From assembly GCF_054482525.1 (NCBI RefSeq), contig NZ_CM137006.1: a stretch of DNA of 64,000 nucleotides; one strand, 5' to 3'. The position numbers were made by a program, and so were the translations under genes. Shown here in pieces: positions 45,511 to 46,563 of this stretch (the first letter of the stretch is position 1; each line of letters starts with the position of its first letter). The notes under the pieces were generated by a model that did not search any database, was not told where the DNA came from, and was given only the letters and a program-made list of their open reading frames with translations.

Positions 45511-46563
45511 ATGTTTTTAGCATCATTGTTGAGACGTATTGCATTTAGTTACTACGATTATAAAGCTAATAATTTCAATATTGGAAAAACAGACTTTGTT
45601 GTCATCCATATTCCCGATCAAATTGGCGATGCTATGGCCATCTTTCCAGTTATTCGGGCGATTGAAATGCATAAAATAAAGCATCTTTTAATTGTTACTT
45701 CGACTATTAATTTAGAAGTCTTTAATGCGCTCAAACTTGAACAGACTAAATTAACATTAGTCACAATGACTATGCAGGATCACGCAACATTAAAAGAAAT
45801 AAAAGATTTAGCGAAGAACATAACACAGCAATACGGTACGCCGGATCTTTGTATAGAGGCGATGCGTAAAAAGAACTTGAAAACGATGTTATTTATCAGT
45901 CAGTTGAAAGCAAAAACGAATTTTCAGGTTGTCGGTTTAACCATGAAGTGCTATTCCCCTTTGTGTAAGAACGCGTCCCGGATGGATCAGAATCTCAGGG
46001 CTCCCGTACCCATGACATGGGCGTTTATGATGCGTGAAGCGGGTTTTCCTGCAGTCAGGCCAATATATGAATTGCCATTAAGCGAGGATGTACTCGATGA
46101 GGTGCGCGAGGAAATGCGATCGTTAGGATCTTACATTGCGCTTAATTTAGAAGGTAGCTCGCAGGAGCGTACATTTTCATTATCGATTGCAGAAAATCTA
46201 ATAGCAAAAATTCAAAGTGAAACAGATATACCAATAGTGATCGTTCATGGACCCAAAGGGGAAGATAAAGCCAGGGAACTAGTGAATAGTTATAATAATG
46301 TCTACCGTTTATCCTTGTCACCCTCGATTAAACGTTCAGCAGCAATCATAAAAGATGCTTATATCGCAATAACACCTGACACCTCAATATTACATATGGC
46401 AAGTGCCTATAATACCCCCGTTGTTGCAATTTATGCTGATTACAAAACGCGATGGCCCGCAATGGCCGATGTCTCGGAGTCAGTCGTCGTTGGGCAAAAA
46501 ATTGACAATATAAGTCTGGATGAATTCGCAAAGGCATTAAAAAGTGTTTTGGCGAGAATTTGA
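45511..46563 (+). CDS. yeeL: GT9-family glycosyltransferase (ADP-heptose heptosyltransferase-like), intact
   Basis: 350-aa AT-rich ORF; N-terminal motif VVIHIPDQIGDAMAIFPVIRAI resembles the WaaC/WaaF-type N-terminus; position between shiA and yeeJ. Recalled as a split pseudogene in K-12. Confidence 0.65.
   Translation: MFLASLLRRIAFSYYDYKANNFNIGKTDFVVIHIPDQIGDAMAIFPVIRAIEMHKIKHLLIVTSTINLEVFNALKLEQTKLTLVTMTMQDHATLKEIKDLAKNITQQYGTPDLCIEAMRKKNLKTMLFISQLKAKTNFQVVGLTMKCYSPLCKNASRMDQNLRAPVPMTWAFMMREAGFPAVRPIYELPLSEDVLDEVREEMRSLGSYIALNLEGSSQERTFSLSIAENLIAKIQSETDIPIVIVHGPKGEDKARELVNSYNNVYRLSLSPSIKRSAAIIKDAYIAITPDTSILHMASAYNTPVVAIYADYKTRWPAMADVSESVVVGQKIDNISLDEFAKALKSVLARI

Follow-up and report, generated by a model that had tools for sequence, protein, structure and literature searches.

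An intact yeeL gene in Escherichia coli PCN033 encodes a predicted GT9-family glycosyltransferase of a separate subfamily, evolutionarily independent of the neighbouring yeeJ adhesin gene

We consider here the gene yeeL in a 64,000-nucleotide (nt) stretch of Escherichia coli DNA (contig NZ_CM137006.1 of assembly GCF_054482525.1, referred to throughout as the window), which is 100% identical to the chromosome of E. coli PCN033 (NZ_CP006632.1). The uninterrupted 350-codon open reading frame (ORF) at 45511..46563 (+) encodes a protein, YeeL, that is by its sequence and its modelled structure a glycosyltransferase family 9 (GT9) protein with a GT-B fold and with catalytic and donor-site residues of the type found in WaaC, a heptosyltransferase of lipopolysaccharide (LPS) synthesis. 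Reasoning by analogy, we infer for YeeL a role as an accessory transferase that places heptose (or another sugar) on the LPS core or on another lipid-linked envelope glycan, a reading that we judge slightly likelier to be right than wrong. Both yeeL and its GT9 annotation are already present in databases; what is added here is the placement of YeeL, by trees and profile comparisons, as a distinct GT9 subfamily in Enterobacterales that is not orthologous to WaaC, WaaF, WaaQ or WaaU, the evidence from comparative genomics that yeeL is evolutionarily independent of yeeJ, and the location of its distant relatives in gene clusters of the core or O-antigen type.

The initial annotation of this stretch described an AT-rich, full-length ORF of 350 amino acids (aa) and took it to be a full-length GT9-family gene, yeeL, and our results agree with it on both points. 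The GC content of the gene is 39.0%, compared with 49.1% for the whole window and about 50% for shiA, amn and yeeJ; RefSeq annotates PCN033 at identical coordinates with WP_000477865.1, a "glycosyltransferase family 9 protein"; and a ribosome-binding site (AGGGAGG..GAGG) is found 6-12 nt before the ATG, at about 45493-45504. The Pfam GT9 family (PF01075) matches YeeL residues 232-321 with 32 bits (gathering score 22, E=1e-7), and the match to the heptosyltransferase I model TIGR02193 is confined to residues 206-347. The heptosyltransferase-like N terminus that had been noticed at the outset holds up in restricted form: the profile matches sit in the C-terminal half of the protein, and what the N terminus contributes is a short IGD motif (G39-D40) together with a predicted fold that is GT9-like over the full length.

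A single-sequence AlphaFold model was unusable (predicted local distance difference test score, pLDDT, of 41), and we used instead a model based on an alignment of 64 sequences that comprises the YeeL family and its relatives, including WaaC, WaaF, WaaQ and WaaU (pLDDT 95.9, predicted template modelling score 0.92). The predicted fold is of the GT-B type, with two Rossmann-like lobes that can be superposed on solved GT9 enzymes; the values listed against the YeeL model were 29.1 for 3TOV (Veillonella GT9), 25.1 for both WaaC and WaaF, 23.9 for PnsB1 (a plant GT9-like protein) and 16.6 for TibC. Every one of the 64 aligned sequences matches the heptosyltransferase I model, and G39, D40 and H295 are invariant in all of them. 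The active-site residues of WaaC map onto YeeL as D13 to D40, K192 to R220, D261 to D290, T262 to T291 and H266 to H295 (the assignments and their conservation are given in Table 1), and the segment PDTSILH is the part of YeeL that aligns best to WaaC and WaaF in searches of Protein Data Bank (PDB) sequences. Two features are specific to the YeeL family, namely a helix at the N terminus (residues 2-13) and, around residues 139-170, a conserved insertion bearing the motif CYSP.CK.ASRMDQ.RAPVPMTW.

Within GT9, YeeL stands apart from the enzymes of the LPS core. A profile search of 1.84 billion representatives returned 33 proteins at E<=1e-30, of which about a dozen are full length at 28-35% identity; further out lies a continuum of generic GT9 proteins. 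In neighbour-joining trees (Poisson distances, 100 bootstraps, rooted on WaaC), the Enterobacterales YeeL clade was recovered in 100/100 bootstraps, nested in a "YeeL-like" clade that was likewise recovered in 100/100, and WaaF, WaaQ and WaaU fell inside the YeeL-like clade in 0/100. The nearest K-12 paralogue is WaaU, at 17% identity. YeeL scores 16.5 bits on the heptosyltransferase III model TIGR02201 (cutoff 170.2) and 13-15 on the PRK models (cutoffs 437-569). Against PDB sequences, the YeeL-family profile finds WaaC at E=9e-4 and WaaF at E=0.027, and profile-profile comparison with hhalign gives WaaC a probability of 70.7% over 131 columns. A phylogenetic comparison with WaaC, WaaF, WaaQ and the adhesin-modifying enzymes had been suggested with the initial annotation as a means of telling LPS from an adhesin as the target of YeeL; its outcome goes against the adhesin link at the level of family and fold, which group YeeL with the LPS-type rather than the adhesin-modifying enzymes, although YeeL forms a subfamily of its own and is no orthologue of WaaC, WaaF or WaaQ.

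Orthologues of YeeL with 53-97% identity occur in other Escherichia species, E. albertii, E. whittamii, Hafnia paralvei, Pseudocitrobacter, Erwinia, Pantoea coffeiphila and Rosenbergiella, and their alignment shows long invariant motifs common to all. Considering only pairs with unsaturated synonymous sites, yeeL has a ratio of nonsynonymous to synonymous divergence (dN/dS) of 0.09-0.18 in comparisons inside E. coli as well as across species; for shiA and amn the ratio is 0.01-0.02 at similar dS. These comparisons place yeeL clearly under purifying selection, though less constrained than shiA and amn; given this dN/dS and the presence of orthologues in several genera, the ORF is far beyond what chance would produce.

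The synonymous divergence between PCN033 and K-12 climbs towards yeeL (0.058 in yeeN, 0.078 in amn, 0.131 in shiA and 0.146 in yeeL), a gradient over window positions 43880-46563 that suggests older or recombinant alleles as the variable yeeL-yeeJ region is approached. Separately, the nr database has an entry named "glutathione transporter [Rattus norvegicus]" that shares 75% identity with YeeL across 88% of its length; presumably the sequence came in by bacterial contamination or the record carries a wrong label.

The intact gene is the majority state in E. coli, with recurrent independent loss. In K-12 MG1655, yeeL (b4497) is annotated as a pseudogene; it too is 1053 nt long, and its sole lesion is an in-frame stop at codon 235. 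The statement in the initial annotation that yeeL is a disrupted pseudogene in K-12 was thus correct, the disruption being the single nonsense codon Q235*. Queried alone, yeeL matches 5268 of 5426 complete E. coli genomes, with at least 80% of the query covered in 4939 of them. We sampled 12 genomes at regular intervals along the ranked list of full-length matches: nine had an intact 350-codon frame, two had the Q235* stop and one had an independent stop, L60*. The cluster of full-length 350-aa YeeL proteins holds more than 10,000 member sequences. In other E. coli genomes the gene is interrupted by one of the insertion sequences (IS) IS1, IS2 or ISVsa5, and the forms in Shigella sonnei are truncated. 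A full-length yeeL outside K-12 is then the normal condition, which makes its intactness in the window a largely ordinary finding.

Allelic diversity at this locus extends further. A divergent yeeL allele (72% identity, dS >1 relative to PCN033) is present in Escherichia sp. E1V33, E. coli SCPM-O-B-8794 and E. coli E69, where the locus is rearranged to hchA-yeeL-mtfA-shiA-amn and lacks yeeJ. The match to the PCN033 gene is only partial in some E. coli (e.g., MS1494), a pattern suggestive of recombination between alleles.

The role that we favour for YeeL can be set out as follows. The protein would be a functional, cytoplasmic, stand-alone GT9 glycosyltransferase, whose C-terminal Rossmann lobe would bind a nucleotide sugar (by analogy with WaaC, most probably ADP-L-glycero-D-manno-heptose) through Arg220, Asp290/Thr291 and His295. 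In the N-terminal lobe, Asp40 would serve as the base that takes the proton from the acceptor's hydroxyl group in a transfer of the inverting kind. As acceptor, we consider a lipid-linked glycan of the envelope most likely, met on the inner face of the inner membrane, with the LPS core oligosaccharide as the best candidate; YeeL would in that case be a non-essential accessory enzyme that decorates the core and whose gene lies apart from the waa cluster. The intact gene, the GT9 fold with its catalytic residues, the purifying selection and the independence from yeeJ are results of the analysis, and the donor, the acceptor and expression in the PCN033 strain are what we infer.

Part of the argument for this role comes from what surrounds the gene. 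In a survey of 22 loci, taken from one genome per species, we sought a conserved gene partner for yeeL and found none in the Enterobacterales copies. Because no partner gene is co-inherited, an orphan enzyme such as YeeL must use a donor and an acceptor already present in the cell; the lack of a conserved neighbour fits an enzyme with a housekeeping donor and acceptor, and ADP-heptose, which all yeeL hosts already make for the LPS inner core, and the nascent LPS core meet that description. The more distant relatives do have informative neighbours. A relative in Litchfieldella anticariensis (36% identity) lies between a glycosyltransferase family 4 (GT4) gene and a gene for a kinase of the Kdo/WaaP family, with further GT4 genes beyond; two relatives from metagenomes are surrounded by genes of the GT4, GT2 and Wzy_C types (Wzy_C being the O-antigen ligase/polymerase family), and one of the two also adjoins a second GT9 gene; and another distant relative is divergent from a GT8 gene. 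Such glycan clusters support a glycan as the acceptor, as read from gene content.

Known enzymes offer partial parallels. With WaaC and WaaF (heptosyltransferases I and II; PDB 2H1H, 6DFE and 1PSW), its best profile and PDB sequence matches, YeeL shares the catalytic Asp of the N-terminal GD motif, the donor motif D-T/S-x-x-x-H and, where WaaC has Lys192, a basic residue, but it is only 13-14% identical to them, belongs to a separate clade, has in addition the N-terminal helix and an insertion about 30 residues long, is dispensable, and is encoded outside the waa (rfa) cluster, between shiA and yeeJ/mtfA (about 1.74 Mb from that cluster in K-12). WaaQ and WaaU (heptosyltransferases III and IV) are accessory, non-essential GT9 core decorators and the closest K-12 paralogues of YeeL (15-17% identity); waaU shares the low GC content of yeeL, whose 39% resembles the 27-40% of the outer-core waa genes of K-12, but WaaQ and WaaU, unlike YeeL, are encoded in the waa operons. 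WaaH (YibD) conditionally transfers glucuronic acid to HepIII in the core of E. coli. It provides a precedent for a non-essential, conditional LPS-core-decorating glycosyltransferase encoded by a single gene outside the main waa operons, but it belongs to a different glycosyltransferase family and has a known acceptor and regulation. The structural-genomics structure 3TOV (Veillonella parvula GT9, function unassigned) is 14% identical to YeeL and uninformative on the acceptor.

Several observations weigh against an LPS-directed heptosyltransferase. YeeL falls below the equivalog cutoffs of the models for heptosyltransferase I (TIGR02193, 39.5 against 185.3) and heptosyltransferase II (TIGR02195, 21.5 against 134.6), and the basic acceptor-binding residues of the WaaC N-lobe are not conserved in it, so its acceptor must differ from Kdo2-lipid A (Kdo, 3-deoxy-D-manno-oct-2-ulosonic acid). 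GT9 also includes N-acetylglucosamine (GlcNAc) transferases, and the donor is for that reason not certain. The LPS-core or O-antigen cluster context is seen only in the distant relatives (30-36% identity), not in the Enterobacterales orthologues. Since the gene has been inactivated repeatedly in E. coli, any function of YeeL is dispensable. A scan of the shiA-yeeL spacer for sigma-70 promoters gave no convincing site, with fewer consensus sites than in shuffled sequence; the AT-rich gene may be silenced under laboratory conditions. Finally, we found no published biochemical or genetic evidence for YeeL activity in the searchable literature, where yeeL appears in its K-12 pseudogene form as a neutral integration site. 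The sole functional hint in the literature that we found comes from transposon-directed insertion site sequencing of the ST131 strain EC958, in which yeeL (EC958_2299) is among 30 genes enriched for insertions in a hyper-motile fraction (log fold change 7.46; unvalidated by the authors), a signal that suggests a yeeL phenotype (PMC5425062).

Should YeeL be active, it would be one more accessory enzyme of E. coli envelope glycan biosynthesis that is invisible to K-12-based work, with modest relevance to LPS structure, phage receptors and serum resistance. A stronger statement, namely that most E. coli in nature, along with a scattered set of other Enterobacterales, use YeeL to add an undescribed extra sugar, probably heptose, to the LPS core or an envelope glycolipid, we offer only tentatively, and hold to be more doubtful than probable. 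That K-12, the reference strain, naturally carries a nonsense mutation in yeeL would explain how such a sugar escaped notice, and if present it could affect surface properties such as motility (the hint from the ST131 screen) and sensitivity to phage or serum.

Among the alternatives, the one that fares best is that YeeL is an active GT9 enzyme with a different donor (such as UDP-GlcNAc) or a different acceptor (such as enterobacterial common antigen, an O-antigen or capsule intermediate, or a soluble metabolite); we regard it as unlikely, if still to be reckoned with. The divergence from WaaC at the acceptor-binding residues speaks for it, as do the family-specific helix and insertion, and a soluble acceptor could be read from the genes for major facilitator superfamily (MFS) transporters that often adjoin yeeL: shiA in E. 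coli and Pseudocitrobacter, and others in Erwinia persicina and Rosenbergiella. However, the gene upstream of yeeL varies among shiA, two unrelated MFS transporter genes, an alpha/beta hydrolase gene, hchA and tonB, and the three MFS neighbours are not homologous to one another (no BLASTP match at 1e-3), so that the association looks coincidental; a transporter-coupled function was dropped on that account. The donor-site motif of YeeL agrees moreover with that of the ADP-heptose enzymes, and its nearest profile matches and solved structures are all LPS heptosyltransferases.

A second alternative, which we consider improbable, is that yeeL is a horizontally acquired, silenced relic, functionless in E. 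coli and drifting to loss, so that its intactness in PCN033 is incidental. The AT-richness of the gene relative to its flanks, its independent inactivations (Q235*, L60*, three kinds of IS and the truncated Shigella forms), the failure of the spacer scan to find a promoter consensus, the normal growth of K-12 without yeeL, and a dN/dS 5-10 times that of the neighbouring housekeeping genes would all be in keeping with such a relic. That same dN/dS is nonetheless the signature of a constrained protein, with full conservation of the catalytic residues even where sequences have diverged by about 50%; 91-97% of E. coli genomes have kept the gene, predominantly intact in our sample; and the strong enrichment of insertions in the hyper-motile EC958 pool, which its authors did not follow up, suggests a phenotype (PMC5425062).

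The remaining alternative, put forward as a hypothesis in the initial annotation, is that YeeL is a dedicated protein O-heptosyltransferase that glycosylates YeeJ while it is still in the cytoplasm, prior to export, in the manner of Aah with AIDA-I and of TibC with TibA, and it is very improbable, because yeeL is kept without yeeJ, the two genes are convergent, and YeeL has neither a match to the Aah/TibC family model nor the hallmarks of that family.

The genomic part of this evidence is as follows. Searching with tblastn within 10 kb of yeeL in the 22 loci, we found a YeeJ homologue only in E. coli proper and in no locus from outside E. coli. In Escherichia sp. MOD1-EC7003 (YeeL 93% identical) mtfA directly follows yeeL, the order in Pseudocitrobacter is amn-shiA-yeeL-mtfA, and unrelated genes flank yeeL in Erwinia, Pantoea, Rosenbergiella, Hafnia and E. 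albertii. Within E. coli, the 5' part of yeeJ (LysM plus barrel) is covered to at least 80% in 2967 of the 5426 genomes, compared with 4939 for yeeL, so at least 1972 genomes have yeeL but not the 5' part of yeeJ; together with its occurrence in at least six genera, this argues against a dedicated pairing. A published survey found yeeJ in about 40% of strains (PMC5595812). In the window the two genes form convergent, separate transcription units, with a terminator-like hairpin after yeeJ (minus strand, 47113-47090) revealed by a terminator scan of the spacer between them. From these gene orders, the best reading of their adjacency is that yeeJ occurs, specifically in the E. coli lineage, in the interval from yeeL to asnT/mtfA. 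The same published work showed that YeeJ expressed in K-12 strains is displayed on the surface and promotes biofilm formation (PMC5595812), and in K-12 MG1655 yeeL is a nonsense pseudogene. Studies of YeeJ need not, then, assume YeeL-dependent glycosylation.

The protein-level comparison points the same way, and by sequence and predicted structure YeeL is not an enzyme of the Aah/TibC type (PDB 4RAP and 4RB4; TIGR04414). The TibC sequence that we used agrees with both PDB entries over all 406 residues, 4RB4 having the D110A mutation. YeeL has no match to TIGR04414 (hepto_Aah_TibC) at E<=1, with the model present in the library and matched by one unrelated member of the 64-sequence alignment; TibC was not found by the YeeL-family profile among PDB sequences at E<=10; hhalign gives TibC a probability of 0.5% over 17 columns, against the much higher value for WaaC; and TibC falls inside the YeeL clade in 0/100 bootstraps. 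The TibC family has a beta-barrel domain of about 97 residues at the N terminus, ahead of its catalytic domain (PMC4358343). No such domain is found in YeeL, which has a full Rossmann N-lobe and in which the GD motif is reached at residues 39-40 after only one helix and a loop. Likewise, the iron finger of TibC, with its four conserved cysteines (C339, C342, C358 and C370), and its beta-hairpin thumb were not found, the corresponding TibC segments aligning to gaps; YeeL has only three cysteines (114, 147 and 152), all in the N-lobe. The adhesins differ as well: the neighbour of yeeL is of type Ve and convergent rather than an operon partner, and its passenger consists of Ig-like domains, not of the beta-helix repeats that the Aah/TibC family modifies.

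Two loci in these surveys call for separate mention. Contig JARKOR010000252.1, from a metagenome-assembled genome labelled "Candidatus Nanosynbacter sp.", carries amn-shiA-yeeL-yeeJ with 97-99% protein identity to E. coli, and almost certainly represents E. coli DNA that has contaminated the metagenome bin. In E. whittamii, the region downstream of yeeL (our locus L009, 7216-16935) contains genes for an OLD-family AAA_15-TOPRIM ATPase and a UvrD-like helicase, a Gabija-like defence pair, followed by two large ORFs (818 and 1107 aa) without a Pfam match. We considered whether the large ORFs beside yeeL in this species might encode a different adhesin, and discarded the idea, none being an adhesin by Pfam.

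The features of the window discussed here are collected in Table 1.

Table 1. Coordinates of yeeL, its predicted active-site codons and its flanking features in the window.
Feature	Position	Strand	Description
Intergenic region between the divergent shiA and yeeL	45197..45510	.	Contains the yeeL ribosome-binding site
yeeL coding sequence	45511..46563	+	350 aa plus stop; intact gene for a GT9-family GT-B glycosyltransferase; ATG start
Asp40 codon	45628..45630	+	Equivalent of the WaaC catalytic base Asp13; IGD motif
Arg220 codon	46168..46170	+	Equivalent of WaaC Lys192 (donor-phosphate contact); conservative Lys-to-Arg change; invariant in the YeeL family
Gln235 codon	46213..46215	+	CAA here; TAA in K-12 MG1655 and in 2 of 12 sampled E. 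coli, giving pseudogenes
D290-T291...H295 codons, PDTSILH donor-sugar motif	46378..46395	+	Equivalent of WaaC D261, T262 and H266; (nearly) invariant in the YeeL-family and 64-sequence alignments
Spacer between the convergent yeeL and yeeJ	46564..47134	.	Terminator-like hairpin for yeeJ (47113-47090, - strand); minority variant from about 46719 onward
yeeJ-type inverse autotransporter adhesin gene	47135..55822	-	IAT_beta, 18 Big_1, Invasin_D3 and D4 (Pfam); context, not part of the yeeL system

Immediately around yeeL, PCN033 has shiA (divergent) on one side and the yeeJ-type gene (convergent) on the other. The product of the latter, which RefSeq describes as an "Ig-like domain-containing protein", is 2870-2895 aa long and 63-68% identical to K-12 YeeJ over the passenger region, with about 68% identity in the C-terminal half. 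With its 18 Big_1 matches it is longer than the YeeJ of MG1655 (about 2340 residues), and it also exceeds the published long variant of UMN026, which has three extra Big domains (PMC5595812). Shadow ORFs within yeeJ recur in near-identical form 609 nt apart (e.g., 51288/51897 and 51389/51998), which points to a recent tandem duplication of a two-domain unit in the gene. Beyond window position 46718 only 209 of the 5426 E. coli genomes match, whereas yeeL itself occurs in nearly all of them; positions 46719-47134, together with yeeJ's 3' portion (about 47135-50000), thus represent a minority variant.

On the other side of the locus, window positions 35729-40515 (+) hold an RHS element core protein gene of about 60% GC, followed by a tail of 32-36% GC and a gene for a small protein (tetratricopeptide-repeat by RefSeq, with no Pfam match at 1e-5), and frameshifted phage-integrase and helix-turn-helix genes lie beside them. 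Because K-12 has asnW and yeeO instead beyond yeeN on this side, the region looks like an island.

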